From Gammaproteobacteria bacterium (lineage in GTDB: Bacteria; Pseudomonadota; Gammaproteobacteria; Eutrophobiales; Eutrophobiaceae), in the NCBI GenBank assembly GCA_965207165.1, contig OZ242265.1, positions 1,501,593-1,565,592 on the forward strand: a stretch of DNA of 64,000 bases, written 5' to 3'. Positions 17,118 through 59,039 of this stretch are shown in pieces. Both the position numbers and the translations under genes were made by a program. The first letter of the stretch is position 1. Each line of letters opens with the position of its first letter. Under the pieces are notes generated by a model, which ran no database searches, was not told the DNA's origin, and saw nothing but the letters and a program-made list of their open reading frames with translations.

Positions 17118-17244
17118 GTCTAAAACTCCTTGCGGGATGTTTAGGAACGAATAATTTCAGCCCATATTATAACAAACGCTATACAAAAAAGTTATCACCA
17201 GCCCGGATGTTGTGCAAGTAACTTATAAGGCGCAGTAATTGGGT

Positions 17245-17267
17245 ATGCCTCCGGTTGGCTCCCAGTA
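17245..17267. repeat. 22/23-bp direct repeat, right copy
   Basis: See 14508..14530. Confidence 0.7.
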
Positions 17268-17358
17268 CGTTCGTTGAGTTTAACGGGCAGGCGTTCAAGG
17301 CCGCGCAACGACATGGCAGGAGAGAATACAAAGTCCAGACTATCCCGTATCCGGTCAG

Positions 17359-18129
17359 TCAAAGCTGCCAACCCCCATCGACGGCCAGGTTCACACCTGA
17401 TATGTACCTGCCTTTTTCTGATGCCAGGAAGACTACCGCATTGGCGATGTCTTCAGGTGTACCCAGGTTACCCAGGGGGACTTGCGCGGTAATCGCCTTG
17501 ATGGCCTTCTCGTCCATCTGGCCGTCCATACCTCTTGCCAGTTTTCCTCCTGCCAACCAGCCCGAACGGATGCTGTTTGCCCGGATGCCATAGCGACCAT
17601 TTTCCCTGGCCACCACCTCCAGCAGGTTCTCAATGGCTGCCTTGGGCGCGCTGGACAGCACACTCTTCGGCAGGTGTCGTGTCGCCTGGGTGGTGGTCAC
17701 TGCGGTAATACTGCCGCCGCCGGTATCCTTCAATACGGGAAGCGCAGCCTGGATCAGGTTGAAACAGGCATGGGTGTCCTGCGTAAAGATGTTTTTCCAG
17801 GCTTCCAGACTTGTGGAACCGACAAAATCTATGGGTATGGCCGGACCTGCTGCATACACAACGCTATGGACGGCGACGTACTTTTCCTTGACCTGCTGCA
17901 TAAATGTATGGGTTGCAGCCTCATCATGCAAAGCCAGTTGATAGTAGTCCACTGCAATGTCTGAAGAGCCACAGGATTGTATTACCTGTCGCGCCCCCTG
18001 CTCGTTCAGGTGATAGGTGAACGCCACCGGCGATCCCGACCTCGCAAACGCCTCTACGATTGCCGCGCCGATCCCCCCGCTACCGCCGGCAACAACCGCA
18101 ACCCCCTCTTTAAACTCCTTTACACCCAT
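17359..18129 (-). CDS. SDR-family oxidoreductase
   Basis: 256 aa; VAGGSGGIGAAIVEAFA Rossmann motif; catalytic YxxxK region. Confidence 0.7.
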   Translation of the reverse strand: MGVKEFKEGVAVVAGGSGGIGAAIVEAFARSGSPVAFTYHLNEQGARQVIQSCGSSDIAVDYYQLALHDEAATHTFMQQVKEKYVAVHSVVYAAGPAIPIDFVGSTSLEAWKNIFTQDTHACFNLIQAALPVLKDTGGGSITAVTTTQATRHLPKSVLSSAPKAAIENLLEVVARENGRYGIRANSIRSGWLAGGKLARGMDGQMDEKAIKAITAQVPLGNLGTPEDIANAVVFLASEKGRYISGVNLAVDGGWQL

Positions 18130-18199
18130 TATTCATTCAGCGCCAGATACGGCGATCAATCAGCATATACTATACCTACCATACTGAGATTTCGTTTAC

Positions 18200-18240
18200 A
18201 AAAAAAGCCACCAGTGTTGCTATTGGTGGCTTCGTTATTT
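18200..18240 (-). terminator. Rho-independent terminator for the TonB-dependent receptor gene
   Basis: Hairpin gccaccag-tgttgctat-tggtggc; on the minus strand it is followed by TTTTTTT (aaaaaaa 18200-18206 on plus). Confidence 0.6.
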
Positions 18241-18257
18241 CGGATTGCGAGTTCATA

Positions 18258-20747
18258 CTAGAAATCGTATGCAATATATCCTCCAAGCTGTCTCGGATCG
18301 CCCGGGACACCAAAAAGAAGGAAGCCGTTGCCGACCGCCCCGGTTTTGAAGTAGCCCTCGTCAAACAGGTTCCTGCCATAAAAACCAAGCTTCCAGTTGC
18401 CGTTGTTGGGTATGTACTGCATGTTCAGATTAACGGTCGCATAACCGGCATCTGTCGTGCCGCCGGAACCAACGCGGTTCTCTGCGTCATACCATGACCC
18501 AACGTTGTAGCGCAGCGAAGGTGTGATGCTCAGCTCACCGCTGGTGAGAAAAGGCACCCTGTAATCCAGTCCGGCTGCCAGTGTGAAGGGCGGGGCGCCG
18601 GCAAATTTCTTACCGTTCGTCGCCGCAAAGCCTGAAGTGCCGGCAAGGGTATTGAAAAAGGGTGAATCCTGCTCATATTCAGAATCCGTAATGGTCATGT
18701 TCACATACCAGGTCAGGCCGTCATTTATCAGGCCGCTCAGATCAAGTTCCGCACCGTACAGCTCACCCTCAGGCACGTTATAGATAACCTGGCCACCGAC
18801 GTTGTTATCAATGAAGCTGATGTGGGGATTTTCGTAATCATAGTACCAGACCGCACCATTAACGAGCAGGTTACCACCCATCCATTGCGACTTGAAACCT
18901 ATTTCATAGGATGTGACTTCCTCCGGTTCGGAAACACCAAATGCGGGGCCATCCGCATTCAGGTAGGCCGATTTGAAACCGGTGGAGGTACCACCGTAGA
19001 ACATCCAGCTATCCGTCTTGTATTCCAGCCGGGCCGTATAGGTAAATTTATCGTCTTCCCTTTCAATTAGTCCGGCATTGGCATTCAATATTACCAGAAC
19101 AGGGTTGGTAAAAGGGTTGGTCAGATCGGTATGATCCTGCAACTCCAGTTCGTCCCTGTTATAGCGGCCACCCAGGGTAACGCTCCAGTTACCGGTAAAC
19201 GGATAGGTAATCTGCCCATAGACCGCGTAGGAAGTGGTTTCCCATTCATTCCGGGTACTTATGTTAAAACCACCAAAGCTGTTGCCATCCACACCATGCA
19301 ACTGCTGCTCGTTAAAATAATTAAAGCCGATAAGCCAGTCCCAGTCCCAGGTATCATTCGACACCAGACGGATTTCCTCCTGAAACATGTCGTTTTCATA
19401 CTGGCCGGTAAATCCGAGGCCGAGATTTGGCAGGCCCAACAAGCCCAGGGTCACGGCCCCCGGACTGCTTGGATCGATATTACCCACACCTGCAGCGCCG
19501 AAATAGTCGATGTCCGCATACGCGGTAATGGATGTCAGGGTAAACCGTTCAAAATCGATGTCGATACGACCGCTGAAAGCGGTCTCTTCGACTTGATGGC
19601 CGGAACCGGAAAAGGGCGATGCACTACCAAGAGTACCCGCAACCAACGCCCCGCCAGCGCCGGCGCCTGCAATTTCATTGCTGTTAATCAAGTTGGCGTG
19701 AGTGCCGCCTCTCCCCCGGGAAAAGTCGATGCCGGCTGCGGTACCGATGGCAGTGGGTATCGGACCAATCGTAGGTATAACCAAAAAGGGTGTATTCCGG
19801 TCACCGGGCGGCAGTCCGAATCCGCCTCCCAGTATCCCGGCCATAAGGACTTCACCGCTGCTCAGACCGTTTGCCGCCAAGGTATCGGCATCAAGGCCAA
19901 TTGCTGCCAATGGACCACCCGGAGCCGTGCGTGGATCAATCTGCCGGATTTGTGCCGCAGAGGGTAGCTCCCGATCGGATAATCCATAGTAGACATTAAC
20001 CCCGTCAAGCTGGTCCAAATAGCTGCCCTTGAGCAGCACCGAGATATTGTCCTGTTCAAACAATAACTTGCCGGTCAACCCCCATTCTTCCAGATCATGT
20101 ATGCCACCCCTGGCTGGGTTCTGGCTGTCGGGCAGAAAGTCGTAAAACGGGTCATGTTCCTTGAAAAAACCTTCCAGACTGAGAGCAGTGTTATCCGTCA
20201 GGCCCGTTGCTGCATAAACACTCAGGTCTATTGCGTCATGTTCGCCATAGCCGACTTTAACATTACCGGACGGTCCAACGCCGACTTCCGGTCTCCTGGT
20301 CTCAATGACGATGGAGCCGCCGGTTGAGTTTTTCCCATACAACGCTCCCTGTGGACCTTTCAGAACCTGAACGCTGGACGTGTTAACACCGACATTGCTG
20401 GCATAAGAACGTGGTATATACACACCATCCACATTGATGGTGGAACCCATATACACAGCGCCGCCCGGTATGATACTGCCCATCCCCCGGATGACCGGTA
20501 TCAGGTAGCCACCCGTATTCATCATGTTAACACCGGAAATGGCAGTGCCAAGCTCTTCCGTACGAGTAATCGCCGCTTTTTCCAGCCCTTCCTCTGTGAG
20601 TGCAGAAATCGAAATGGCTACATCCTGGATGGATTCCTCACGTTTCTGGGCGGTGACAATGATTTCTTCCAGTTGTGCCAGTGCCGGTGTCATCGACAGG
20701 CACAGACCGGTTGTAATGACAGAAATGATGTATAGTTTAATTTTCAT
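18258..20747 (-). CDS. TonB-dependent outer-membrane receptor
   Basis: 829 aa; signal peptide, TonB box/plug (EEIIVTAQKREESIQDV), C-terminal ...IAYDF; contains an unusual Gly/Ala/Pro-rich ~100-aa segment. Confidence 0.85.
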   Translation of the reverse strand: MKIKLYIISVITTGLCLSMTPALAQLEEIIVTAQKREESIQDVAISISALTEEGLEKAAITRTEELGTAISGVNMMNTGGYLIPVIRGMGSIIPGGAVYMGSTINVDGVYIPRSYASNVGVNTSSVQVLKGPQGALYGKNSTGGSIVIETRRPEVGVGPSGNVKVGYGEHDAIDLSVYAATGLTDNTALSLEGFFKEHDPFYDFLPDSQNPARGGIHDLEEWGLTGKLLFEQDNISVLLKGSYLDQLDGVNVYYGLSDRELPSAAQIRQIDPRTAPGGPLAAIGLDADTLAANGLSSGEVLMAGILGGGFGLPPGDRNTPFLVIPTIGPIPTAIGTAAGIDFSRGRGGTHANLINSNEIAGAGAGGALVAGTLGSASPFSGSGHQVEETAFSGRIDIDFERFTLTSITAYADIDYFGAAGVGNIDPSSPGAVTLGLLGLPNLGLGFTGQYENDMFQEEIRLVSNDTWDWDWLIGFNYFNEQQLHGVDGNSFGGFNISTRNEWETTSYAVYGQITYPFTGNWSVTLGGRYNRDELELQDHTDLTNPFTNPVLVILNANAGLIEREDDKFTYTARLEYKTDSWMFYGGTSTGFKSAYLNADGPAFGVSEPEEVTSYEIGFKSQWMGGNLLVNGAVWYYDYENPHISFIDNNVGGQVIYNVPEGELYGAELDLSGLINDGLTWYVNMTITDSEYEQDSPFFNTLAGTSGFAATNGKKFAGAPPFTLAAGLDYRVPFLTSGELSITPSLRYNVGSWYDAENRVGSGGTTDAGYATVNLNMQYIPNNGNWKLGFYGRNLFDEGYFKTGAVGNGFLLFGVPGDPRQLGGYIAYDF

Positions 20748-20768
20748 CGAATTCCCCCGTCGTCAGAC

Positions 20769-20850
20769 ATTGATATACGTACACGCTCTTGACCTACGCA
20801 AGAGTATATAATAGTTGTAGAACGTTTGCTATACTAGCAGATGTTATAAG
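20769..20850. promoter_or_regulatory. ~82-bp promoter/operator module, copy 1: IR ctcttgacctacgcaagag + TATATAAT + degenerate palindrome operator
   Basis: ~85% identical to 23493..23575; lies 22 bp upstream of the receptor start. Confidence 0.55.
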
Positions 20851-20933
20851 AAAAAACAGCAGCTGAGCATGAGCATAGCCGAGCATGTTGTCAACAATTA
20901 GAATTGTCCGGTTTAGAGCGTTGTTGATGTGCG

Positions 20934-22106: not shown

Positions 22107-22190
22107 TACCGCTACCAGTCGTTCACCACGTTACAGGGAGGCCGAATCAACGACATAACCGTTATATCCATCGGAGACCTCATTTTTTTA

Positions 22191-23441: not shown

Positions 23442-23492
23442 AGAAAACTCCACTTAACTTGGTTAACACATCCGACATCAAAAATTAGTATG

Positions 23493-23575
23493 GATATACG
23501 TACAACAGCCTCTTGACCTGCGCAAGAGCATATAATAGGTTTATATCGATTGCTATACTAGCATATGCTATAAGG
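23493..23575. promoter_or_regulatory. ~82-bp promoter/operator module, copy 2 (IR ctcttgacctgcgcaagag, CATATAAT, palindrome site 23557..23572)
   Basis: Divergent intergenic region between the P450 (minus) and the dehydrogenase (plus). Confidence 0.6.
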
Positions 23576-23680
23576 ATAAAGGCCGATGAAAAGGCAGCTA
23601 ATGTTGCGGGTGCATTGCATTCACCTGCTAAAACCAGTTATATTTCAGAAAAAACAATCGGTTACGCGGGAGGATATAGC

Positions 23681-24571: not shown

Positions 24572-24582
24572 CGTTGTAGCGT

Positions 24583-24876: not shown

Positions 24877-24906
24877 TCTCATTTCTCCTGCAAGGTTTGA
24901 CAAACT

Positions 24907-25788: not shown

Positions 25789-25860
25789 ATATTGTCGCCC
25801 ATCGTGTGGTTGCAGACTTTGTATTAATTCCGGCTTGCAGGTTTCCAACAATAAGTTTAT

Positions 25861-25876
25861 TGTAGCATGTGCTATA
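25861..25876. promoter_or_regulatory. Palindrome operator site (tgtagcatgtgctata; 14/16 to TATAGCATATGCTATA)
   Basis: Divergent intergenic region between the BASS transporter and the CoA-transferase. Confidence 0.5.
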
Positions 25877-25912
25877 TTCGTTACAACCCGTGAGGCCGGG
25901 AGAAAAAATCAA

Positions 25913-29876: not shown

Positions 29877-30626
29877 ATGAATAAGCAATTACAAACCTTG
29901 CCGGACAAACAGGCCATTGGTGAAATGATGTGTGTCTGGGCGGGGTTCGTCAGTATTACGCTCTTTGTAATTACATGGATAGTCGCTGTGGAATGGCTAT
30001 TTCCGCCACCGCCAGACTTGAACGCGACTGAAATAACGGATGTATACCTGAAAAATACAATCGGGATAAAAATCGGCACTGCGGTAATAACCAATTTTGC
30101 CGCACCGTTAACACTCGTATTTGCGGCAATTATCACAATTTACATGTTGCGAATGAAAGGCCCATCTCCCGTACTTGCGTATATTAACCTCGCTACCTCA
30201 GCCATACAGGTATTGATCTTTATTATCCCGACGGAAATTTTTGCAGCGACGGCATTTCGTCTCGACAGGACCCAGGAGATTACCCAGTTTGGCAATGACC
30301 TGGGCTGGCTCATTTTTGACAACGTGGTGGGCCCAACCCAGGTGCAGTGGCTGGCGATTGCCCTGGCAATCCTTTGGGATAAAAGTGAGCAGCCACTATT
30401 TCCCCGTTGGTTTGCCTGGTTCAACATATGGGGCGCCACGGTTATCCTGCTTAATAATCTTGTCCTCTTTTTTAAGACCGGGCCCTTTGCCTGGAATGGT
30501 TTACTCGGCTGGTGGCCAGGCGCCGGTATATTTTGTTTGTGGTACTACGTCGCTTTTTATGTCATGTTCAAGGCAGTGCAAAAGCACCATCGTCTAATCG
30601 CAAATCAAACAACGCATAAAAACTGA
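29877..30626 (+). CDS. Integral membrane protein of unknown function (~6-7 TM)
   Basis: 249 aa, strongly hydrophobic, no recognised motif. Confidence 0.5.
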   Translation: MNKQLQTLPDKQAIGEMMCVWAGFVSITLFVITWIVAVEWLFPPPPDLNATEITDVYLKNTIGIKIGTAVITNFAAPLTLVFAAIITIYMLRMKGPSPVLAYINLATSAIQVLIFIIPTEIFAATAFRLDRTQEITQFGNDLGWLIFDNVVGPTQVQWLAIALAILWDKSEQPLFPRWFAWFNIWGATVILLNNLVLFFKTGPFAWNGLLGWWPGAGIFCLWYYVAFYVMFKAVQKHHRLIANQTTHKN

Positions 30627-30845
30627 AGCTTAAGGAAAATATATAAATGTTTCGCCTGTAGTACGCATACCCACCTTTTTTTTGAGTAGTTTCCCGACTC
30701 TTGAAATCGGCAACAGCCTGGTCTTTTAATGTTCGGGGATTATATCCGTCACTAATATAACAACTGCTATATAATATTCCATCACTCGGTGAAAATAAGC
30801 AAAGTGACATTGCTCTCATAGAGCATTTGATATATTATTGTCCAG

Positions 30846-31463
30846 ATGAATGGAAGCACGATTATAAAGATATACGGTTCTGTCCTGTCTCGTGCGAATC
30901 GATGCCTATGGGTGCTTGAAGAGCTGGGGCTGGATTACGAACACCTAAACATTGACCCCCGGTCCGGGGAAACCCGGTCGGCAGCATACCTGGCGCTGAA
31001 TCCAAGCGGTAAGGTTCCGGTTATGGTGGAAGAAAAGTTTGTCCTGACCGAATCCATGGCCATTACCCGCTATCTTGCCGGCAAGTTACCCACACGGTTA
31101 TTGCCGGCCGATCCCGTGTCGCGGGCTAAGATTGATCAATGGACCCTCTGGGCCGTCACCGAAGTCGAACCATTTGCCACTTTGGTGGTACGGGAAATGA
31201 GACTTGGCGACTCAGCTGATCCGGGCCTCACCGGCAAATGCAAAGAACATGTAAGCAAGGCGCTTGAAACTATCGAATCCTGCCTGACGGACAGCGGTGA
31301 TTATTTAATGGGCGACAATTTCTGCCTGGCGGATCTGAATGTCGCCGCTGTGGTCTATATGGTCCCCGTGATCGGAATCGATATGGAGACAGCGCCGAGG
31401 ACTTCCGCATGGTTGCAACGCTGTCTGAAGCGTCCCGCCTGGCTCAAGCTCCAGGACCTGTAG
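30846..31463 (+). CDS. Glutathione S-transferase
   Basis: 205 aa; thioredoxin-like N-domain ...LNPSGKVPVMVEE... and GST C-domain. Confidence 0.8.
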   Translation: MNGSTIIKIYGSVLSRANRCLWVLEELGLDYEHLNIDPRSGETRSAAYLALNPSGKVPVMVEEKFVLTESMAITRYLAGKLPTRLLPADPVSRAKIDQWTLWAVTEVEPFATLVVREMRLGDSADPGLTGKCKEHVSKALETIESCLTDSGDYLMGDNFCLADLNVAAVVYMVPVIGIDMETAPRTSAWLQRCLKRPAWLKLQDL

Positions 31464-31524
31464 CACTTGCAGCACGCCTCGTTATGAGTCCCCCTGCGAA
31501 AAAACAATGACTCGGGAGGGAGTT

Positions 31525-31831
31525 ATGCCTGAATATAATCTTGCGGGTAAACGAGTCATCGTCACAGGCGCCGCCCGGGGGCTTGGGCGGCCCGGCAAAT
31601 ACACGAATGATTCCTGAAGATATGGGGCTGCCCAAGGATCAGTTAATCAGCGCAGACTGTTTGGTTGGGCCGGCATTATGGCTGGCTTCTGATTTTTCTG
31701 ACGGGGTGACCGCCTGCCGTTTTAGAGGTGTTGCCTGGGGCAGTAATGCTTCTTTGGAGGAAGCTTTGGCCGCATCCAAAGCGCCCATTGCCTGGGCCGG
31801 GTTCGGCGCACAGGCGATTATACCTGACTGA
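31525..31831 (+). pseudogene. SDR pseudogene: intact N-terminal TGAARGLG motif, then frameshift/internal deletion; C-terminal remnant in another frame
   Basis: MPEYNLAGKRVIVTGAARGLGRPGKYTNDS* then, in the +1 frame, ...VGPALWLASDFSDGVTA... (SDR C-terminal-like); central ~170 aa missing. Confidence 0.6.
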
Positions 31832-31931
31832 GTTATTTACCTGTTCCTAATAACAAAGCAGAACACAAATCACGAACCTGCGGCAAATGGGCTGTTGAAA
31901 GCGGCAACACTTTATCAGAGGGACCTGGAAA

Positions 31932-32921
31932 TCATGCAATTGCCCTGGTGGGACGGATCCGCTCCAGCCAGCCGTAGCCCGTTTCACCATCCCAGGTATA
32001 GATAGCGGGACATTCTATGGCCGTCATGTACCCGGCATTCGAAAGATCGAGACCGGGTCTCAGGCCCGTTGGCGGCAGCAGGTTGAACGGTACGAACCGG
32101 GCATTCGGCACTTCACACTTGAGCTCCGCCTGTCCGGCATCCGTTTGCAGTCGCACCACTCCGATATGTGGGTTGCCGGCGGTATCCACCAGGTCGGGAT
32201 AGCAATCGGAGGCGGCAATCCGCATCTGTCCTTTTTCAAATACCTGACCCTTCAATATCTGCACTTCCTGCCGGCTGACCTGCAACAGGCTGAAAACCTT
32301 TCCGCTGGGAAAGGCGCAATGTGCCCAGGTTTCGGAGTCCAGGGTCCTGAACGTTCGACGGCTGACCGAGTGATCGCGATAACCGGTACAGCTGACCTCG
32401 ATACGTTTACCTCCAATAACAAAGTATCCCCTGACCAGGGCACCCTGTTCCAGGTGCATACGTTCCGAGCCCAGGTTGGAATCGTGCATATTGTAAACAG
32501 GTTGGACTGCATCATAGACCAGGTGATACGACACGGCTTCTGACGGTTCGACACCAATCGGGCGCGTACGTAGCACGTTGGCATCCGCCCGCTGCATGGT
32601 GCCTTCAAAGCGGTATTGCCATACCTTGTTGGCGATGATCGGTTTACATTCGTATTCACTGTTTCGCGCCTGGCTTGTGTTGACGCCCAGGCTGCGATTG
32701 ACCAGCACCCCGCCTTCCGGCAGAAAGACCAGGGACAAGCCTTCCCACATGGACCGGTCCGGCTGCATCCGTCCCATATGACCATACAGGCAAATGCCGG
32801 TGCCGGGGTCGTGCATGGTCCAGCAAATATTCTCCGTCCAGTCAGGCTTATCTGACGGGATTTCGGTGCGGATCAGATCAATGGCAATGTCGACCTTGTT
32901 GTGTAATTCTGTACTGTTCAT
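31932..32921 (-). CDS. Conserved hypothetical protein; paralog of 35382..36386 (shared GYRDHSxxxRxW motif)
   Basis: 329 aa; the two ORFs align over most of their length; possibly lipocalin/AttH-CrtC-like hydratase family (low confidence). Confidence 0.5.
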   Translation of the reverse strand: MNSTELHNKVDIAIDLIRTEIPSDKPDWTENICWTMHDPGTGICLYGHMGRMQPDRSMWEGLSLVFLPEGGVLVNRSLGVNTSQARNSEYECKPIIANKVWQYRFEGTMQRADANVLRTRPIGVEPSEAVSYHLVYDAVQPVYNMHDSNLGSERMHLEQGALVRGYFVIGGKRIEVSCTGYRDHSVSRRTFRTLDSETWAHCAFPSGKVFSLLQVSRQEVQILKGQVFEKGQMRIAASDCYPDLVDTAGNPHIGVVRLQTDAGQAELKCEVPNARFVPFNLLPPTGLRPGLDLSNAGYMTAIECPAIYTWDGETGYGWLERIRPTRAIA

Positions 32922-33001
32922 CTGGATTAGACTTGTACTCCGTTATTTAAATGACAGTTTATTTGTTACTGACAGATCCTGACATCCCGCTTGACCGTGA
33001 G

Positions 33002-33017
33002 TATAGCATATGCTATA
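33002..33017. promoter_or_regulatory. Perfect 16-bp palindrome TATAGCATATGCTATA (operator candidate)
   Basis: In the divergent intergenic region 32922..33091. Confidence 0.65.
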
Positions 33018-36423: not shown

Positions 36424-36439
36424 ATATAACACATGCTAT
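36424..36439. promoter_or_regulatory. Palindrome operator site (tataacacatgctata; 14/16)
   Basis: Divergent intergenic region 36387..36456. Confidence 0.4.
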
Positions 36440-36456
36440 AGAAAGGGGAATATATC

Positions 36457-44004: not shown

Positions 44005-44020
44005 TATAGCATATGCTATA
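44005..44020. promoter_or_regulatory. Perfect 16-bp palindrome TATAGCATATGCTATA
   Basis: Divergent intergenic region between the SDR operon (minus) and the receptor (plus). Confidence 0.65.
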
Positions 44021-44148
44021 ATTATTGCGATAGTTAAGCAATCGTCTGGATAATACCAAACTTATTGCTGTATCAAATACCCAGGGGTACACAAGACGTT
44101 TAACGACAATGCATGGTTAATATATACAAAAGCAAATTGGGGGTTTAC

Positions 44149-46344
44149 ATGAAAACTAAAACGTCCGGAAACATAGTCGCTTCAGCTACCATACTTATTA
44201 CCTGCCTGTCAGTTTCCTTTAATGTGCCGGCGCAATTGGAAGAGATCATCGTCACGGCACAAAAACGTTCGGAAAATATCATGGCGGTACCGATCTCCAT
44301 TACCGCGATCAGCGGTGAAAGCCTGCTGGATGCCGGGGTCAGAACAACAGATGATCTGCAAGCAGTGGTGCCTGCTGCTTCATTTCGAAAGCAGATATCG
44401 GCCTTCGTACCGTTTATACGTGGTATTGGCTCTCAGAATACTGCAATCGGTACGGAAGCCTCGGTCGCGATGTATGTGGACGGAATATACCAGTCTTTAC
44501 CGGTTTCCAACGCAATCGGGTTTAATAACATCGAGCGCATCGAAGTTCTTAAAGGCCCGCAAGGCACCCTGTTCGGACGTAATGCTACGGGGGGAGCAAT
44601 CAATATATTCACCAAAGATCCGGAGCATGAGAGCTCGGGCACCCTCAAACTGGGTTATGGCAATTATGAAACGTTTAATGTTGACTTTTTTGGAACAACG
44701 GGCCTAACTGAAGATCTGGCCGTCAATGCCGCTGTACAATATGAAGATCAGGGTGAGGGATATTTTAACGATACCATTAACGACACCGATGTCAGTAAAA
44801 AAGACGGGTATTCCGCAAGAGTCAAACTGCTCTGGACGCCAGGCGAAAATACGGAAGTCAGGCTATCCGCAAGTTTTGAAGACACAGAAGGTGGCGTAGG
44901 AGGACAACGCGTCATTTCATCAGGGACAAATGTACTGGGAAACATGCCATTGGCCGGAAATAAACAGATCCAGCAGAACTACACGTACGGCACGAACACC
45001 GGATCAGAGTTTGAGGGAGCTGACCTGGAGCTCGAAAGCAGGGCTGTCACGTTGCGTATCGATCATGATATCGGCAACCATTCACTGGTCAGCATTACCG
45101 GCTGGCTTGACCAGGACTCATTTTACATCGTCGATCAGGACGTTGGCCCACTACCGGGCATTGATGCCGATCTTACTCACCGCAACAAACAAGTCAGCCA
45201 GGAGATCCAGGTGCTGTCAAATTATGACGGCCGGTTCAACTGGATTGCCGGTTATTACTTCTTGAATGCTGAACACGACTATGATCCGTTGCGGCTGAAG
45301 GGAATCTTCTTTCTGCCGTTGGACTTTATCGACATCAGAAATACTGCCGAGACAACATCCCATGCGGGTTTCGTGGAAGGTAATTATAAATTTACAGATG
45401 CAACCAACTTTACAGTTGGCTTTCGTTATACTGAAGACAAAAAGGAGTTGCGCGGACGAACTGACTACGGTGCAGGCGGTTTCATTGCCAACAGTGTCCC
45501 ATACTCAGGCAGCAAAACCTGGTCTGAACCGACATGGCGCGCCGTTCTCGATCACTGGATTACCGATGACGTCATGGCGTATGCCAGCTACACCCGCGGT
45601 TTCAAAGCAGGTTCGTTTAATGGTGTTGTTACATCCGGAGTGCTGGGTGCGCCGGTGAACCCGGAAACCATGGATGGTTACGAGATAGGTTTTAAAGGGC
45701 AATTTCTTAATAATTCATTGGCGCTTACGGGGGCTGTCTATTACTACGAAATTGATGATCTTCAATATTCGCAGCAGATTGTCGGTGGAAGCATACAACG
45801 TAATGCGGCAGAAGCCGAAGTTAAAGGTTTTGAATTATCGGGGCAGCTTGTTATGACTGGGGGTTTCAGTCTGTCCGGGGGGCTAGCCTATACCGACGCT
45901 GAATTTGTGGATTTCCCTAATGGCCTGGCGACAATCCCTAATCCCGCCGGTGTTGGAAATATCCCAGATGAAGATGTGCCGGGGCAGGGAAAGGATCTGA
46001 CTGGCAACACAGTACCAAGAACGTCTGACTGGACATTGAACCTGGCCCTTGGTCATGAGTGGGTCCTGGATAACAACGCTGGTGCCGTAAACTCTACGTT
46101 GACCTATTACTACAATGATGGCCACCCCTGGGAAGCGGATAACAGGGTTCGGGAGGATTCCTATTCACTGGTCAATGCCAAAATCGGTTATACCAATCCC
46201 ACCGGTAGGTATACTGTGGAAATCTGGGGCAAGAATCTTACTGAGGAGGAGTATTCATCGTATGCTACCTCGTCACTGCTTCAGGATGCTACAACGCCAT
46301 CTGTACCGAGAACCTATGGCGTCAGTTTGACGGTCAGTTTCTGA
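44149..46344 (+). CDS. TonB-dependent outer-membrane receptor
   Basis: ATG 44149 after GGGGG; signal peptide, plug (EEIIVTAQKRSENIMAVPISITAISGESL), C-terminal ...SLTVSF. Confidence 0.85.
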   Translation: MKTKTSGNIVASATILITCLSVSFNVPAQLEEIIVTAQKRSENIMAVPISITAISGESLLDAGVRTTDDLQAVVPAASFRKQISAFVPFIRGIGSQNTAIGTEASVAMYVDGIYQSLPVSNAIGFNNIERIEVLKGPQGTLFGRNATGGAINIFTKDPEHESSGTLKLGYGNYETFNVDFFGTTGLTEDLAVNAAVQYEDQGEGYFNDTINDTDVSKKDGYSARVKLLWTPGENTEVRLSASFEDTEGGVGGQRVISSGTNVLGNMPLAGNKQIQQNYTYGTNTGSEFEGADLELESRAVTLRIDHDIGNHSLVSITGWLDQDSFYIVDQDVGPLPGIDADLTHRNKQVSQEIQVLSNYDGRFNWIAGYYFLNAEHDYDPLRLKGIFFLPLDFIDIRNTAETTSHAGFVEGNYKFTDATNFTVGFRYTEDKKELRGRTDYGAGGFIANSVPYSGSKTWSEPTWRAVLDHWITDDVMAYASYTRGFKAGSFNGVVTSGVLGAPVNPETMDGYEIGFKGQFLNNSLALTGAVYYYEIDDLQYSQQIVGGSIQRNAAEAEVKGFELSGQLVMTGGFSLSGGLAYTDAEFVDFPNGLATIPNPAGVGNIPDEDVPGQGKDLTGNTVPRTSDWTLNLALGHEWVLDNNAGAVNSTLTYYYNDGHPWEADNRVREDSYSLVNAKIGYTNPTGRYTVEIWGKNLTEEEYSSYATSSLLQDATTPSVPRTYGVSLTVSF

Positions 46345-46371: not shown

Positions 46372-47241
46372 CTACTCTTCCCGGAGCAAGTCCGAATGTC
46401 CGATTCTTTCCCGGGCAGGGTTGGGTCTCATCATAATGGACATGCCGCCATCTACGATGACCTCCGTACCGGTAACGTAGCTACCGGCGTCACTGGCCAA
46501 TAGCTGGACCTGGCCTTCAACTTCCTCGGGACGACCCAACCGGCCAAGGGCCGAATTACCGGCAAAATCCTTAACAAAAGCCTCGCCGGCGCCCGGGCCA
46601 TCCATTTGATCAAGGAGTTCAACTACGTTGGTTTGCATCATGTCTGTGTGGAAGGCGCCCAGGATCAGGCTGTTCACGGTAATACCATCATGGCCCAGTT
46701 CAGCCGCGGCCATCCGGGTGTAGGCATTAATCGCCCCTTTCGACGCTGCATACATCGACTGGCCGATTGATACAGCTCTGAGGGAAGATTCTGATGAACT
46801 GAAAATAATTCTGCCCCATTGTTTTTTTTTCATATGGGGTAGAAAACGTGTTACCAGGGAGACATTCGCGGCAAAGTTGACCTGCATCAGGTTTGCCATT
46901 ATTTTCTCCTGGTCATCACTGACGCCAAGTCTTGCTTCCTGTCCCGCATTACCGATAAAGATATCAACACCACCGAGTGTATCAATAACATAGTCCACCG
47001 AGTGCTCAATGTCTTCCCTGTCCGACAGATCGATCTTGCGGTAAATTACGGCATTGCCGGAATCCTCAGAAAGTTGTTTTGCCGCATCTTTAAGGACTGT
47101 TTCACGACGGGCGGCTATCATCACACCCGCACCGGATCGGGCCAGGCCCCTGGCCATATAATATCCCAGGCCGGTGGCTCCCCCGGTGACAAAGGCTGTT
47201 TTACCGGTCAGATCAAACTTTTTAAACGCATCGATATTCAC
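46372..47241 (-). CDS. SDR-family oxidoreductase
   Basis: 289 aa; KTAFVTGGATGLGYYMARGLARSGAGV. Confidence 0.75.
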   Translation of the reverse strand: MNIDAFKKFDLTGKTAFVTGGATGLGYYMARGLARSGAGVMIAARRETVLKDAAKQLSEDSGNAVIYRKIDLSDREDIEHSVDYVIDTLGGVDIFIGNAGQEARLGVSDDQEKIMANLMQVNFAANVSLVTRFLPHMKKKQWGRIIFSSSESSLRAVSIGQSMYAASKGAINAYTRMAAAELGHDGITVNSLILGAFHTDMMQTNVVELLDQMDGPGAGEAFVKDFAGNSALGRLGRPEEVEGQVQLLASDAGSYVTGTEVIVDGGMSIMMRPNPARERIGHSDLLREE

Positions 47242-47251: not shown

Positions 47252-48418
47252 TCAGATTGTACGGCTGATTATCAAACGCATTATTTCGGATGTGCCGGCG
47301 AAAATACGGTGCAGGCGAGCCCCTGTATATAAACGGGAGACATTATATTCATCCATATAGCCTGCCCCACCATGGAATTGAACACATTGATCGATAATCC
47401 TGCCTTCCATCTCGCATACCCAGAGTTTCGCCATGGCACAAAGTTCCATGTCCAGCTTGCCATTTGCCCTGTAGTTGCGAATGATTTCGTCAAGGAAGGC
47501 GCGGCCAACAGCTAACTCCGTCTTGATTTCCGCCAGTTTGAACCGGGTATTCTGGAACTCAAAAACAGGTTGACCAAAGCTGTTGCGGTTCTTTACAAAT
47601 TCAACAGTTTCATGAAACGCCCGAGTCGCTGCAGCGTGACCAATGAGGGGCCATGTTATGCGATCCATGTTGACACCGCCGAGCAGAATACCCATACCCT
47701 TGCCTTCAACCCCCATCAAATTACCGGCTGGAACATGAACATTATCAAAAAATATTTCTGCCGTATTACTGGCATGATTACCCATCTTGTGCAGGTCACG
47801 TCCCAATTGAAATCCCCCGCGATCAGCCTCAACAATGATGACCGAGATACCCTGGGCGCCCGCTGCCGGATCGGTTTTACAACCCACCATAAAGAATTTG
47901 GCGTCCTTCGCATTGGAGATATAGGTTTTGGAGCCGTTGATTACCCATTCATCCCCTTTCCGCACAGCCGTGGTCCGCATGGAGGCAACATCGCTACCGG
48001 AAGCGGGTTCTGTGATGGCAAGACCGGCGCGCGCTTCCCCTTTGACCATAGCCGGCAACCATTTCCTGCGTTGTTCTTCGGTACCGTTTCGATAGAGAAT
48101 TTCACTGCAGCCATCGCCAATCAAAGCGGGACCCATGCTGGCCCCGGCCGGGCTGTATCCCAACTCTTCAGCAATCACCATCCGGTACATGAAGTCCCCA
48201 CCAGGTCCACCGTATTCTTCGGGAATATCCACACCTAAAATGCCGACCTCGCCGGCTTTCAACCAGAACTCAGGTTCCGGGCCACCAATTTCTATCCAAC
48301 GGTCAACGTTGGGCTCTACCTCTTCTTCCAGAAAGCGCCGGAATGTCTGGCGGAAAATTTCGTGTTCCTCATCCCAGAGAGCTGGGTTGTGTGGGTAATA
48401 CATTGCTGTTATCTCCAA
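47252..48418 (-). CDS. Acyl-CoA dehydrogenase (paralog of 20934..22106)
   Basis: 388 aa; ACAD domains. Confidence 0.85.
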   Translation of the reverse strand: MEITAMYYPHNPALWDEEHEIFRQTFRRFLEEEVEPNVDRWIEIGGPEPEFWLKAGEVGILGVDIPEEYGGPGGDFMYRMVIAEELGYSPAGASMGPALIGDGCSEILYRNGTEEQRRKWLPAMVKGEARAGLAITEPASGSDVASMRTTAVRKGDEWVINGSKTYISNAKDAKFFMVGCKTDPAAGAQGISVIIVEADRGGFQLGRDLHKMGNHASNTAEIFFDNVHVPAGNLMGVEGKGMGILLGGVNMDRITWPLIGHAAATRAFHETVEFVKNRNSFGQPVFEFQNTRFKLAEIKTELAVGRAFLDEIIRNYRANGKLDMELCAMAKLWVCEMEGRIIDQCVQFHGGAGYMDEYNVSRLYTGARLHRIFAGTSEIMRLIISRTI

Positions 48419-48527: not shown

Positions 48528-48543
48528 TATAGCATATGCTATA
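48528..48543. promoter_or_regulatory. Perfect 16-bp palindrome TATAGCATATGCTATA (embedded in the 18-bp ATATAGCATATGCTATAT)
   Basis: Intergenic region 48419..48661 upstream of the ACAD. Confidence 0.65.
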
Positions 48544-50001: not shown

Positions 50002-51339
50002 TCAGTTCGTAAAACCGGCAAGATCCGATGCCAGGTCGTTCAATATCTTGGGGAACGAATTAAAGCCAATGGCGGCTATTCGCAGGTCCCGGTCAACACC
50101 GGATGTGTACATGGAATGAGCGCCACCCATTTGAATTGCAAGCATCACCGATCGCCAGATGGTGAAAAATTGCATGCGGATATCTGCTATCTTCCAGCCC
50201 CCATTGCTGCGATAGACCTCCATAAACTCGGACCACGGCATAATGGATTCAATCAGTCCCTTACAATAGCAGAGATCTTCTGCCGGGTCACCGGCGTGGG
50301 CGAACTCCCAGTCAAGAAGACCTGTCACTTGGTCGCCCTCCCCCATCACATTGTGCAACCCGGCATCACCATGCACCAGCTTGCGCTCATTGCCTATGTT
50401 ATTCATTTGCAGGTATAACCAGGCAAAAGCAGTATCGAGTATCGGCGTCGGGGCTACTTTTTCCGTGTAACGCCGGTAGAAACTGTCAACCATGGCCCTG
50501 ACGGGGTGTTGTTCCTCGCCCCAGTTCAAGTTGCCGGCGAGACTGCTGCGTTTTATATCAATTGAGTGTACCCGGGCCAATGTGGCGGCGAAAGCTCTTG
50601 CGATTGCCGGCGGGGCATCGCTCTGAAACAGGGTTCCCATGGCCTGGCCCGGCACCCTGGAAAAGGCGATGAATGCCCCCCCGATGACGGAGGTGTCCGT
50701 TTCAATCCACAGGGGTTCCGGGACCTGGATGCCGGCCTTCCATAATGCCACGATAACGGGGTATTCATAGGTGACGGAAACCCCTGTGACCATATGGGAG
50801 AAGTCGCGCCGAATGACGATGGAACGCGCGCCATTTTGATCCTGTACATCTAGTAACATCGTACCCTTTGACCTCCCGCCGGGTATCACTTTCACGCCGG
50901 AGACTTCGATAACAGGATCGTCCGGGAATTTCTCTTTAAGGTATTTACTGAAGGTTTCGTTCGGAATGTTCAGTTCGTCACCCGAACTGCCTTCGGGCGC
51001 GGTACTGTCGGCGATCTCCACCAGGCGTTGTTCAACAGCATCACGGCGGGTCCGGTCTGCAGCGGCAAACCGAGCGATGGTTGCCGCCAGTTCCGGGATT
51101 CTGCTCCGGTCGATTGATTTATCATAAAGCGCAGCGAGGTCTGCCGTAGATATGCCCTGGGGACAGTTGGCGCCATGTTCTTCCGATGAAACTTCAACCT
51201 CGGCGGCAACACGTACCAGCATCATGTCGATTAATTCTGCCCGGTGCCTGGCCTGCGCTGTAGTCACATTGGTTTTTATGTCTTCACGCAGGGCCGTTAA
51301 CAGGCTTCGTATCAGGTCAACCAGAACGGATGGGTTCAT
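50002..51339 (-). CDS. APH-like phosphotransferase family protein (paralog of 36457..37968)
   Basis: 445 aa; LVHGDAGLHNVM...LLDWEFAHAGDPAEDL. Confidence 0.7.
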   Translation of the reverse strand: MNPSVLVDLIRSLLTALREDIKTNVTTAQARHRAELIDMMLVRVAAEVEVSSEEHGANCPQGISTADLAALYDKSIDRSRIPELAATIARFAAADRTRRDAVEQRLVEIADSTAPEGSSGDELNIPNETFSKYLKEKFPDDPVIEVSGVKVIPGGRSKGTMLLDVQDQNGARSIVIRRDFSHMVTGVSVTYEYPVIVALWKAGIQVPEPLWIETDTSVIGGAFIAFSRVPGQAMGTLFQSDAPPAIARAFAATLARVHSIDIKRSSLAGNLNWGEEQHPVRAMVDSFYRRYTEKVAPTPILDTAFAWLYLQMNNIGNERKLVHGDAGLHNVMGEGDQVTGLLDWEFAHAGDPAEDLCYCKGLIESIMPWSEFMEVYRSNGGWKIADIRMQFFTIWRSVMLAIQMGGAHSMYTSGVDRDLRIAAIGFNSFPKILNDLASDLAGFTN

Positions 51340-51359
51340 ATAAACGATTTACCAGGGCT

Positions 51360-53178: not shown

Positions 53179-53197
53179 ATTATCCTGTCCGATTCAG

Positions 53198-54034: not shown

Positions 54035-54046
54035 TCCGGACCAGGA

Positions 54047-57000: not shown

Positions 57001-57550
57001 ATTCAATATACTCCTGTGTGGAGGAAGGATAAAAAATCGGCACATAGGCGCCCACCAGCATGGGGTCCGATGAGGCAGAGGTAATCGATGACTTGGCGCC
57101 GATATCATCCCCCGTAAAAATCAGGGCACCGCCATACCTGGAAGTACCGGTAGTGAAGTTACCCGCTTTGATGGCCTCTATCGCCCGTTCTGTACCCAGC
57201 ATTTTTCCGTACCACAGGGAAAAAACACCATCGTATTTTTTCTTGTCCGGATAAAAATCCAGCCACTGGGAACCCTTGATGGCTGACGCAGCCAGTTCTT
57301 CGTTCACTGCGGGCATAAACCTGATGTGATGTTCCTCCAACAGATCGCCTGCAGACCACAATGCCGTATCATAAGTCCCGATGGGTGATCCCCGATAACC
57401 GCTGATAAAGCCTGCCGTATTCAACCCCGCGGCAACGTCACGCCGCCGTTGAATCATGGGCAAACGCGTCATGGCCTGCAGAGTGTTGAGGTAAATCCGT
57501 CCTTGAGTTCGGGTATATTTGTCGTTCAGTTGAACAGCTGTTTTAGTCAT
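54047..57550 (-). CDS. Indolepyruvate ferredoxin oxidoreductase-family (fused IorA/IorB) 2-oxoacid:ferredoxin oxidoreductase
   Basis: 1167 aa; TPP-binding and PFOR domains; 4Fe-4S CEGCGDCSTQSNC. Confidence 0.75.
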   Translation of the reverse strand: MTKTAVQLNDKYTRTQGRIYLNTLQAMTRLPMIQRRRDVAAGLNTAGFISGYRGSPIGTYDTALWSAGDLLEEHHIRFMPAVNEELAASAIKGSQWLDFYPDKKKYDGVFSLWYGKMLGTERAIEAIKAGNFTTGTSRYGGALIFTGDDIGAKSSITSASSDPMLVGAYVPIFYPSSTQEYIEYGLYGWALSRFSGLWVALKGVTDTIELTSTAEADSEKLEIITPEGCTFPPEGVNAVHNDFMPLVQERRLVQFKLPLVDAFVHANGLNKVVQDSAKRKLGIVTAGKPYLDLMEALHELGIDTAMASDLGIRIYKLAVTWPLEPQGIREFCLDHDEIMVVEDKNPIIEDQLTRLLYALPQAQRPVITGKKDNEGNTLVPEFGETNVNLMVDVLVRRLKVLDINYPQMHAKVAEIENRRSKVAQLPPVNAFRTAYFCSGCPHNTSTKTIDGSLTFTGVGCYGIVPLVMPDRETEYAAQMGAEGSLWVGLHHFMDLEHSFQNLGDGTYFHSGLLAIRSALAAGANITYKLLYNDAVAMTGGQPIDGELTVEMMANQIYWEGVKPIAVVTDEPEKYPASVHWPPQTRVYHRDELESVQREMQKQKGVSAIIYDQTCAAEKRRRRKRGLFPDPDKRLYINQDVCEGCGDCSTQSNCISIQPVDTEYGRKRRIDQSSCNKDYSCQYGFCPSFVTVEGGQLRKAEQARTEQEQIFAGLPTPETVSGDGAYNILITGIGGTGVLTVGAILGMAAHVEEKACSVLDITGMAQKGGAVLSHIRIAPDTKSINAPRLWSGAADLVIGCDLVVTSGAQVTDLVRSESASILVNNDVVPTAQFQRNMNIDFGKDSMLAVLRQLVGDDSLSDVAATTLATRLTGDSIATNVFMLGFALQKGLVPLTVESVETAIELNGVAVTTNLHTLAWGRMAAHDPEAVERYIAESSLDDGELQLPESVDELIERRISDLTDYQGAGYAGEYKQLIDKVRAAEDALGGDSTELAESVGRYLYKLMAYKDEYEVARLYTSGDFERRLKQQFEGNYKLKFNLAPPLLSFRSKRTGQPGKIEFGPWMFTLFGVLAKLKRLRGTAFDIFGYSKERQRERALVVEYRRHIERIIETLNKDNYALAGEIAALPEMIKGYGHIKEDNIRHYDAQLRNKLKEWDKYPQRIMASAA

Positions 57551-57597
57551 TGGTTGTTGTCATTGGTTTTTACTCGGTGGATATTCCGGTTACTGGC

Positions 57598-57960
57598 TCA
57601 CTTGACAGTAATGTAAACTTCGCCATCTATTACTGTGACGGGATACACCTTGATTGGCTCCGTACAGGGTAAGGCAACAGGTTCGCCAGTGCGGATATCG
57701 AACTTGCCATCATGCCATGTGCACTCGATAATGTGTCCTTCCAGGTAACCCTCATCACCCAGTGATGCCTTGCCATGAGTGCAAAAATCATCGCTGACAT
57801 AAATCTCATCTCCCTGGACACGGTAAACCGCGAGGGCAGACAGGTCTTCACCTTCTACTTCAACCTGTAAAGTATCTTCTTCATCGACGTCCTCAACTGC
57901 GCACACGCGCACGAGGCGCGTTTTTGCAGCGGATGTCGTTTTCATGTCGTCGTCAGTCAT
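57598..57960 (-). CDS. Rieske [2Fe-2S] ferredoxin component
   Basis: ~120 aa; CTHGKASL...CTWHDGKF Rieske motifs; start ambiguous (57960/57978). Confidence 0.75.
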   Translation of the reverse strand: MTDDDMKTTSAAKTRLVRVCAVEDVDEEDTLQVEVEGEDLSALAVYRVQGDEIYVSDDFCTHGKASLGDEGYLEGHIIECTWHDGKFDIRTGEPVALPCTEPIKVYPVTVIDGEVYITVK

Positions 57961-57989
57961 CAGGTTGCCCTCTCTCACGCATTTCCTGT

Positions 57990-58982
57990 TTACAGTGACA
58001 GGAGTTGCTTTGCATTTTCATGAGTGACCAGCGCACTTTCACTCGCTGACAGGCCAGCCCGGGACAGGAACCCGGGAAGATCTTTCTGCCCAATCTCGGT
58101 AGGTCCGTCGGTCCCTGCAACAAAACGACCTGCTCCCAGCCGGCGTACCAGGTAACCCAGATAGTCGGAACTGAATGTCACCGTGTCATAGTAAAACCGT
58201 TTGGCATAGTCCAGGGGTCTGATGTCTCCGTTTACTTTCATCACGTCGAACTTGTTCCAGACCATATCGAAACGATCCAGGACCGCGCCGATACCACCGC
58301 CTCCGTGGCTGAAAACAAGCTTCAGGCGCGGAAAGCTCCCTAAAATATCAGTCATGATAAAAGAGCCAATTAACGCTGTTGTCTCATGGGGCACACCCAG
58401 CACCGGTCCCATAAGCGGAGAACCCAGCAGCCTGTCCAGAGATCCCGGTTTGATCCCATGGATAAACAGGACAAGACCAAGATCTTCCGCTGTTTCAAAA
58501 ACGGGATAGAAACGCTCATCGGCCAGTGAGCAACCATTGATATGGCTGCCCAGGTGAACGCCCTTCAGACCGTGCTCGGAATGAAGACGTTCCAGTTGTC
58601 CAACCGCTTGCTGAGGATCCTGCATCGCAATGCAGCCAAGCCCCTGGAAACGGTCCGGCGCCTTTCGCACCATGTTTCCCACGAATTCATTCATAAAGTC
58701 CGTAAGGACTACGGCAGCGTCAGCATCCAGCCAGTAGGAAAGCAACTCAGGCAGGGGCGATAACAACTCCATGTCAATGCCATTATTTCCCATTTGCTCA
58801 ATGCGTGCGTCCACATCCCAGTAAAAACTCTCGAACTTTCGATATTCCTTGCCATTAATAATCATGCTGGACAGGCTTTCATTAACAGGCGCCATCTCAG
58901 GCCAGGCCGGCTCACTCACACCACCGGGCCGGGCAGGATAACTGTCCGGTACAATGTGTGCGTGAAAATCGATGATGGTCAT
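57990..58982 (-). CDS. Amidohydrolase-2-family metal-dependent hydrolase/decarboxylase
   Basis: 330 aa; N-terminal IDFHAHIVP. Confidence 0.7.
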   Translation of the reverse strand: MTIIDFHAHIVPDSYPARPGGVSEPAWPEMAPVNESLSSMIINGKEYRKFESFYWDVDARIEQMGNNGIDMELLSPLPELLSYWLDADAAVVLTDFMNEFVGNMVRKAPDRFQGLGCIAMQDPQQAVGQLERLHSEHGLKGVHLGSHINGCSLADERFYPVFETAEDLGLVLFIHGIKPGSLDRLLGSPLMGPVLGVPHETTALIGSFIMTDILGSFPRLKLVFSHGGGGIGAVLDRFDMVWNKFDVMKVNGDIRPLDYAKRFYYDTVTFSSDYLGYLVRRLGAGRFVAGTDGPTEIGQKDLPGFLSRAGLSASESALVTHENAKQLLSL

Positions 58983-59023
58983 GCCTGGCTTCCCCTGTCC
59001 GATGAATTGACTAAGCCTTTAAT

Positions 59024-59039
59024 ATAGCGCATGCTATAC
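59024..59039. promoter_or_regulatory. Palindrome operator site (tatagcgcatgctata; 14/16)
   Basis: Divergent intergenic region 58983..59080. Confidence 0.5.

Follow-up and report, generated by a model that had tools for sequence, protein, structure and literature searches.

A 16-bp palindrome at the promoters of a gammaproteobacterial catabolic island is a candidate operator of a TetR-family repressor encoded in the same island

INTRODUCTION

KstR, a TetR-family repressor of mycobacteria and rhodococci, controls cholesterol and lipid catabolism through a 14-bp palindrome, TnnAACnnGTTnnA. This operator occurs in 16 to 31 intergenic regions and covers about 74 to 83 genes that are concentrated in one large region rich in genes for acyl-CoA dehydrogenases (ACADs), cytochromes P450, oxygenases and beta-oxidation enzymes; kstR itself is autoregulated and lies beside an ACAD gene (PMC1995591). 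Here, we analyze a 16-bp palindrome, TATAGCATATGCTATA, that recurs in front of the operons of a catabolic gene island in a gammaproteobacterium. The stretch of DNA under study, referred to below as the window, comprises 64,000 nucleotides of contig OZ242265.1 (positions 1,501,593 to 1,565,592 of assembly GCA_965207165.1), and the candidate regulator is a TetR-family protein, TetR_B, whose gene lies shortly past the 3' end of the window.

Two further systems served for comparison. AtuR of Pseudomonas is the TetR-family repressor of an acyclic terpene/naphthenic-acid cluster and is released by carboxylic-acid ligands; its operator is an inverted repeat that overlaps the -10/-35 elements of the divergent atuA and atuR promoters and is also found at an additional ACAD gene (bioRxiv 10.1101/2025.09.24.678253). 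MntR, a regulator of the DtxR family, has in enterobacteria a box upstream of mntH with the sequence AACATAGCnnnnGCTATGTT (PMC1698941). A first-pass annotation of the window had proposed that the palindrome marks an undescribed regulon. Indeed, no description of the motif or of its regulator was found in the literature, and searches on the motif and on Halieaceae TetR/P450 clusters gave only the MntR box.

RESULTS

A 16-bp palindrome recurs in intergenic regions of the window

An exact search of the window returned TATAGCATATGCTATA at 33002 to 33017, 44005 to 44020 and 48528 to 48543, the three positions at which the first-pass annotation had reported it, and none of 100 dinucleotide-preserving shuffles of the window contained a perfect copy. 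With three or fewer mismatches, 11 matches were found versus 0.13 expected; with two or fewer, about 0.017 chance matches are expected per 64 kb, and the chance estimates given earlier were right in order of magnitude. A symmetrised position weight matrix (PWM) was made from the window sites, and a score of 15 or more was taken to define a strong site. The window contained 14 strong sites, and the runner-up position scored only 9.6. All 14 are intergenic, as had been claimed for the sites listed before, in a window that is about 91% coding. Three of the sites found by the PWM scan were new, namely, 30819 to 30834, 20818 to 20833 and 23542 to 23557; the latter two form tandem pairs with the sites at 20833 and 23557, each with an offset of 15 bp. 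The other listed sites at 23557, 25861, 17168, 30756 and 20833 were recovered with the number of matches assigned to them, whereas those placed at 36424 and 59024 were one base off, their best registers being 36425 to 36440 and 59023 to 59038.

The sequence logo of the sites reads T-A-T-A-G-C-R-T-A-Y-G-C-T-A-T-A, and the motif is written as TATAGCRTAYGCTATA. A4, C6, G11 and T13 are invariant in the logo, and T occupies position 1 in 97% of the sites. The dyad-symmetric pairs G5/C6 and G11/C12, which are foreign to any -10 consensus, are the most conserved positions, and the central RTAY is conserved among the sites as well. Outside the 16-mer, there is just an A/T bias (taa/ttA; aaTATAGC....GCTATAtt), and similarity between copies is gone within about 4 bp, save in one duplicated promoter block described below. 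A dispersed repeat or the terminus of an insertion sequence (IS), which the first-pass annotation had named as an outcome that would speak against a regulon, was therefore not seen. Furthermore, we compared the two arms of the palindrome in 36 sites from seven species-level lineages. Thirty arm pairs departed from the consensus; none of these changes was compensatory, and 25 pairs were broken. Such independent decay of the half-site arms is expected if the palindrome is recognized by a protein but not if it acts as a hairpin.

The sites are located at promoters

Within the island, a strong site was found in six of the seven divergent and in none of the five convergent intergenic regions; where an operon is preceded by a long gap between genes of the same strand, this gap mostly had a site as well. 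The association of the sites with promoters, proposed earlier from their position in divergent and upstream regions of catabolic operons, is thus supported.

The perfect site at 33002 to 33017 lies between a DUF7064 gene (minus strand) and an operon for an ABM-family protein and an aldehyde dehydrogenase (plus strand). The one at 44005 to 44020 separates an operon for a short-chain dehydrogenase (SDR), two enoyl-CoA hydratases, a hydrolase, an LLM-family protein and a ferredoxin reductase, in this order (minus), from a TonB-dependent receptor gene (44113 to 46344, plus), and the one at 48528 to 48543 is located upstream of an ACAD-SDR operon (47252 to 48403 and 46372 to 47241, minus). Promoters were predicted from the consensus by simple -35/-10 matching. 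At the 33002 site, the predicted promoter consists of TTGACC at 32991, a 17-bp spacer and TATATT at 33014; at the 44005 site, of TTGTTT, an 18-bp spacer and TATAAT at 44017; and at the 48528 site, on the minus strand, of TTGTTA, a 16-bp spacer and TATAAT. The predicted -10 element begins at site position 13 in the 33002 and 44005 sites and at position 15 in the 30756 site, and minus-strand -10 elements are predicted to overlap the opposite end of the site at 48528, 17168 and 25861. The same -10 overlap recurs in two cross-species alignments described below (A3 and A4).

Three more divergent regions have single sites. TGTAGCATGTGCTATA (25861 to 25876, 14/16 matches) lies between an SBF transporter gene (minus) and three CoA-transferase genes (plus), and the equivalent SBF/TonB-receptor divergent region of a distant locus (L160) has a site, too. 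TATAACACATGCTATA (36425 to 36440) is found in a 76-bp region between DUF7065/7064 genes (minus) and the gene for an APH-family kinase (plus), and TATAGCGCATGCTATA (59023 to 59038) between an operon that runs from an amidohydrolase to a P450 gene (58982 down to 48662, minus) and a CoA-transferase gene (59081 to 60268, plus). Upstream of an operon for a P450 and an alcohol dehydrogenase (15870 to 17117 and 14749 to 15843, minus), TATAACAAACGCTATA (17168 to 17183, 13/16, PWM score of about 21) is positioned at a distance of 50 bp and is overlapped by a predicted minus-strand -10 element, TATAAT. The glutathione S-transferase (GST) gene (30846 to 31463, plus) is preceded by two sites: TATAACAACTGCTATA (30756 to 30771, 13/16), with a predicted -10 element TATAAT from 30770, and, 63 bp further on and 11 bp ahead of the start codon, TAGAGCATTTGATATA (30819 to 30834, 13/16), which is kept in the loci L002 and L003. 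A weak and doubtful site, ATCAGCATATACTATA (18159 to 18174, score of 6.6 to 8.3), upstream of an SDR gene (17359 to 18129, minus) is the top match of its own intergenic region, yet it falls far below the main set.

Tandem double sites are present upstream of a TonB-dependent receptor gene (18258 to 20747, minus), where TAGAACGTTTGCTATA and ACTAGCAGATGTTATA span 20818 to 20848 (the single site at 20833 has 12/16 matches), and between a P450-ACAD operon (minus) and a NAD_binding_2 gene (plus), where TATATCGATTGCTATA and ACTAGCATATGCTATA span 23542 to 23572 (14/16 for the single site at 23557). In these regions, a 76-bp promoter block is duplicated (20781 to 20856 and 23505 to 23580, 83% identical); it belongs to paralogous P450/ACAD modules and bears the putative double operator together with a CTCTTG...CAAGAG inverted repeat. 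In a related genome (L001, 402 to 756), the block copies are merely 324 bp apart and the intervening ACAD and P450 genes are absent, which suggests that the P450/ACAD module was gained or lost via recombination between the block copies.

A TetR-family gene is located beside the sites past the window end

The window ends within an ACAD gene. The DNA beyond it was read, as loci L125 and L128, from contig ena:ERZ18545412:contig_28, which the window matches, and from relatives. TetR_B, a TetR-family protein of 223 amino acids, is encoded there on the minus strand, about 0.5 kb past the 3' end of the window (L125, 7985 to 8656; window equivalent, about 64,536 to 65,208). The earlier statement that the regulator is not encoded in the window is therefore literally true but misleading. 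Three further sites are found past the window end. One separates TetR_B from the neighboring ACAD gene, and the other two share a divergent region, from which the ACAD-ACAD-MaoC genes ahead of TetR_B start; a search for a regulator gene adjacent to a site, which the first-pass annotation had recommended, leads to TetR_B as the candidate. Moreover, the motif-bearing loci (the window extension, L157 to L162 and L134) have no regulator gene in common other than TetR_B.

Among 5.8 billion proteins, 15 homologues of TetR_B were found at an E value of 1e-10 or less, and those that are named come from metagenome-assembled genomes (MAGs) of Halieaceae and Porticoccaceae. TetR_B and all 15 homologues contain the TetR_N helix-turn-helix domain (PF00440), the recognition region of which (..MPTxYH.F..) is invariant across the 15 homologues though overall identity goes down to 47%; this fits an unchanged operator. 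The AlphaFold model of TetR_B (pLDDT of 80.5) has the all-helical, canonical TetR fold, preceded by a disordered, basic N-terminal extension of about 30 residues, and the Foldseek matches were all TetR-family structures (e.g., PhlH, PfmR, BkaR and FasR). In sequence and fold searches of the PDB, the nearest solved structures were at most 25% identical and generic TetR proteins, which gave no pointer to a ligand, and TetR_B matched no named NCBIfam equivalog.

In the window's own assembly, TetR_B is split by a 1-nucleotide insertion (GACTTACG versus GACTACG in relatives; L128, 7982 to 8654), and the ACAD and MaoC genes beside it are also fragmented (L128, 4608 to 7832). Long-read assembly error could account for this, or real decay could; if the split of TetR_B is real, the island would be derepressed in that strain.

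Two other genes were considered as the regulator gene and rejected. The TetR gene inside the window (about 9468 to 10050) has its own palindrome, AACGAACGTTC, is without a motif site and is missing from the loci L158, L159 and L160. The GST has the size of a TetR protein and is encoded just downstream of two sites, but Pfam identified it as a glutathione S-transferase. The AACGAACGTTC palindrome is located at 9441 to 9452 in the promoter of the in-window TetR gene, as had been described. This TetR gene is part of a separate unit (9388 to 14514) that also encodes an MMPL/sterol-sensing-type transporter of 813 amino acids, a TP_0789-like protein and a protein of 409 amino acids of unplaced family. 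In L158, the MMPL-TP_0789 trio adjoins the island and has no counterpart of the in-window TetR gene.

The motif accompanies TetR_B orthologues in distant genomes

DNA was fetched around eight TetR_B orthologues with 47 to 70% protein identity; it is essentially unalignable to the window. The motif was present in every orthologue locus long enough to include promoters, and comparative genomics, another check recommended earlier, showed the motif and the TetR_B gene recurring together. L159 (TetR identity of 68%) has nine sites in 20 kb, eight of them scoring 19 or more and all between called genes; one is located just after the preceding gene, about 130 bp ahead of the TetR start, and another just past the TetR gene. 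In L130, L131 and L162 (70%), a pair of sites immediately precedes the TetR gene. In L160 (69%), three sites are found at orthologous promoters, namely, in the TetR-to-ACAD, SBF/TonB-receptor and SDR/ACAD regions, and L158 (62%) likewise has three, in the TetR-to-ACAD region and at the promoters of the amidohydrolase operon and the ACAD-Rieske operon. The most distant loci, L134 and L161 (47 to 50%), have one site each, at the promoter of an operon for the alpha and beta subunits of a Rieske oxygenase and the TetR protein. The regulator gene is thus preceded by a site of its own in L159, L130, L131 and L162 and by one at the operon promoter in L134 and L161. In L130, a normal 16-bp site (at 745) in front of the 70%-identical orthologue occupies the place at which the window species has a variant that is 5 bases longer (see Discussion).

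In L162, the neighbors of the TetR gene are an AtuA-family operon, a single ACAD gene and, further out, housekeeping genes. Since the motif is present there without a large island, it goes with the TetR gene and not with the island. Also, the sites are conserved where the DNA around them is not: in an alignment of the amidohydrolase/CoA-transferase region (A3), the 18-nucleotide block TATAGCATGCGCTATATT, which includes the 59023 site, is invariant in four sequences from three species (the window species and two distant genomes) and the flanks diverge, and in an alignment of the TetR-to-ACAD region (A4), the site block is kept between diverging flanks in the same way. A control scan of 160 kb surrounding 22 TetR genes that are not orthologues gave no match scoring 15 or more. 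A metagenome scan with the TetR_B alignment returned 28 loci, of which only 6 were true orthologues, and several did not reach far enough to contain a promoter. In L132 and L133, no site was found, the operon promoter being most likely off the contig. When GTDB genomes were scanned for the 16-mer, the matches listed were mostly chance matches in AT-rich Firmicutes. Among the matches listed, at least five 8-kb chunks of window-species genomes contained the perfect 16-mer, and all of these lay inside the island.

The same 16-mer lies beside mntH in alphaproteobacteria

The consensus had been described as unlike the operators of FadR, KstR/KstR2, PaaX and LiuR; it does, however, resemble another known operator. 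Its core, AACATAGC-N4-GCTATGTT (ATAGC-N4-GCTAT), and the flanking A/T are shared with the enterobacterial MntR box (PMC1698941). Among the matches listed in the genome scan, the identical TATAGCATATGCTATA adjoins an Nramp/MntH gene in at least 10 high-GC alphaproteobacterial genomes (L008, with the 16-mer at 6889 to 6904, L010, L011, L015, L024, L035, L036, L066, L092 and L116) from Labrys, Rhizobiaceae, Parvibaculaceae, Phyllobacteriaceae, Oricola, Rhodomicrobium and others. In 9 of these 10 loci, mntH is divergent from a gene for a DtxR-family regulator, with the 16-mer between the two. In these alphaproteobacteria, the 16-mer evidently is the MntR box. When MntR and MntH were used as queries in tblastn, matches were obtained solely in the alphaproteobacterial loci and none in the window or the island loci.

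A look-alike site precedes a toxin-antitoxin pair

The site at 1121, which had been listed with the set, is a 14/16 match as stated, but its membership in the regulon is doubtful. The look-alike (1121 to 1148, plus strand) lies in the promoter of vapB (MazE-type antitoxin, 1168 to 1407) and vapC (PIN, 1410 to 1826). It consists of two tandem 14-bp palindromes with an offset of 12 bp, ATAGC-CTAT-GCTAT and ATGGC-CTAT-GCCAT, which overlap a predicted promoter (TTGACA, 17-bp spacer, TATGCT) 32 bp upstream of the antitoxin/toxin pair. Tandem palindromes over a toxin-antitoxin promoter are the typical layout of antitoxin autoregulation. Furthermore, the site is 16 kb away from the island, with defence and mobile-type genes between. 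Judged by this layout, it is probably the antitoxin's own operator and outside the regulon, and the island regulator may cross-bind there. A second vapBC-like pair is present at 1913 to 2563.

The sites belong to a catabolic island

The catabolic island with the sites extends from 14749 to 64000 in the window and runs on past the window end; the first 14.7 kb of the window contains two vapBC modules, AbiEii-like genes and the TetR-MMPL transporter unit. According to Pfam, the island encodes three P450s, at least three ACADs, four family-III CoA-transferases, two alpha/beta Rieske oxygenases and an extradiol dioxygenase, and further genes encode a Rieske ferredoxin, a ferredoxin reductase, an aldehyde dehydrogenase, SDRs and enoyl-CoA hydratases, as well as a protein of 1,167 amino acids of the indolepyruvate-ferredoxin oxidoreductase family. 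Genes for uptake encode two TonB-dependent receptors and one SBF-family transporter. None of ten key enzymes reached an equivalog cutoff in NCBIfam, the matches being at the family level only. Several complete MAG chromosomes (among them OZ220696.1, OZ220714.1 and OY282354.1) are from the window species, with about 99% identity.

Two DUF7064/DUF7065 proteins (31932 to 32921 and 35382 to 36380) and two APH-family phosphotransferases (36457 to 37968 and 50002 to 51339) are each encoded behind a putative operator. A protein of 249 amino acids (29877 to 30626) and the one of about 409 amino acids (13285 to 14514) had no Pfam match. Relatives have a gene for an SDR of 278 amino acids between the GST and DUF7064 genes (L002, 7007 to 8004); in the window, this stretch (31464 to 31931) measures 468 bp and is about 530 bp shorter, the SDR gene being truncated or lost. 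L001 is without the GST and SDR genes and has a transposase gene (Transposase_mut) inserted at 15530 to 16783.

DISCUSSION

We propose that the palindrome is the operator of TetR_B, a dimeric repressor encoded in the same island, and we put the probability of this assignment at roughly 0.78. A TetR_B dimer would bind each 16-bp dyad and, at a promoter of the sigma-70 type, thereby typically cover both the spacer and the -10 hexamer; the first four bases of the TATAAT/TATATT box usually are the palindrome's outer TATA. Since the operator covers the -10/spacer region, a bound repressor would exclude RNA polymerase. Nearly all promoter regions of the island have one or two such putative operators, of which at least 13 lie in the window and another 3 past its end. 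Where a divergent region has two sites (30756/30819; L125, 4413/4484) or a tandem double site (20818/20833 and 23542/23557), these might serve to cover both promoters or to allow cooperative binding. A substrate or intermediate of the pathway, possibly an acyl-CoA, would release TetR_B, and the whole island, i.e., at least 13 promoter regions with about 45 to 50 genes, would be derepressed at once. The sites, their position at promoters, their conservation and their co-occurrence with TetR_B orthologues were observed, whereas binding of the sites by TetR_B, repression and the kind of ligand are inferred.

Several observations weigh against this assignment. In the window species, the palindrome that precedes TetR_B has good outer half-sites but 5 extra central bases (TATATCA-N7-TGCTATA) and a poor score (L125, 7843 to 7863; L129, 15 to 37), which makes autoregulation questionable there. 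Also, the TetR gene of L158 is not immediately preceded by a site, and L157, the TetR protein of which is 64% identical, has a single site in 20 kb. The co-occurrence with TetR_B is partly confounded by synteny, TetR_B being a conserved island gene in most loci. The sites were scored in the window and the fetched loci, and there may be sites or regulators elsewhere in the genome. Moreover, the motif core is identical to that of the MntR box.

Some of these points would suit a regulator of the TetR, IclR, MarR or GntR type that is encoded elsewhere and has the sites as its operators, TetR_B then being purely local: the window species is without a canonical site directly upstream of TetR_B, the sites are known from the window and the fetched loci, and synteny could by itself account for the co-occurrence in most loci. 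However, no regulator gene but TetR_B is shared among all motif-bearing loci, the in-window TetR being disqualified by its own palindrome, the missing motif site and its absence from three island loci. In addition, the motif accompanies TetR_B outside any large island in L162, and all of the host-species chunks listed with the 16-mer lie within the island. We consider another regulator unlikely. Much less likely still is a metalloregulator of the DtxR/MntR family that would tie the oxygenase-rich island to manganese or iron status. The core and the A-rich flanks closely match the enterobacterial box, and the identical 16-mer is found beside mntH in the alphaproteobacterial genomes listed above, but neither a DtxR-family nor an Nramp gene was detected by tblastn in the window or any fetched island locus. 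The flanking genes are all catabolic or for transport and none is for metal homeostasis; position 1, a C in the enterobacterial box, is T in 97% of the sites here, the four central bases are N4 there but conserved as RTAY here, and the motif tracks TetR_B orthologues. It is just as improbable that both proteins read the same core, TetR_B in response to the organic compound and a metal sensor of the DtxR/MntR type, the gene of which would lie elsewhere in the genome, in response to manganese or iron, so that this metal-demanding pathway would be gated by the metal; if true, this would be an undescribed overlap of a TetR operator and an MntR box.

Finally, the palindrome might not be a regulator site at all but a dispersed repeat (a repetitive extragenic palindrome, a miniature inverted-repeat transposable element or an IS terminus), a transcribed hairpin or an extended -10 element. 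It is AT rich, overlaps predicted -10 boxes and could fold into a 6-bp stem with a 4-nucleotide loop, and one pair of sites is included in the duplicated 76-bp block. Against this, the repeat family (D2) spans at most 24 nucleotides, with only A/T-biased flanks save in the duplicated promoter, and the lack of any compensatory change among the 30 altered arm pairs is not what a hairpin predicts. An extended -10 element would not account for G5/C6 and G11/C12, the best-conserved positions. The sites also keep their place at orthologous promoters even between genomes that cannot otherwise be aligned, and strong sites are absent from the coding regions of the window and the convergent regions of the island. 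A function other than binding of a regulator is thus hardly credible.

With TetR_B as the putative repressor, the KstR regulon is, judged by analogy, the closest functional counterpart. The island has the same architecture, with at least 16 sites and about 50 genes, but TetR_B scored only 29.5 bits versus a cutoff of 280 bits on the NCBIfam KstR model and is not an orthologue. The operator sequences differ (TATAGCRTAYGCTATA in the island), the host here is a gammaproteobacterium, and its island encodes two-subunit Rieske oxygenases along with TonB receptors and family-III CoA-transferases. AtuR resembles the present case in its promoter geometry and in that the TetR_B orthologue of L162 and an AtuA-family operon are transcribed divergently from a region with two sites. 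However, the AtuR operator, TACAAACCAAGCGCTTGCTTGGTA, is unrelated in sequence, and AtuR was therefore rejected as the identity of TetR_B; the regulon described for AtuR is small, with two promoters, and the comparison is drawn at the level of the TetR family. Unlike MntR boxes, the island sites have catabolic targets and constrained central bases, and it looks as if two unrelated DNA-binding folds had converged on similar operators. This calls for caution when regulons are transferred by motif: in alphaproteobacteria, the same 16-mer is the MntR box, and a regulator can hence not be named from motif identity alone.

Taken together, a TetR repressor/operator regulon of the KstR type, ordinary in kind but in a little-studied lineage, is the best-supported interpretation. 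The finding bounds a co-regulated unit of about 50 genes in an uncultured marine gammaproteobacterium of the Halieaceae/Porticoccaceae type. The pair of operator and repressor offers a handle on its function, since a promoter reporter combined with TetR_B could reveal the inducer and hence what these abundant marine heterotrophs degrade.

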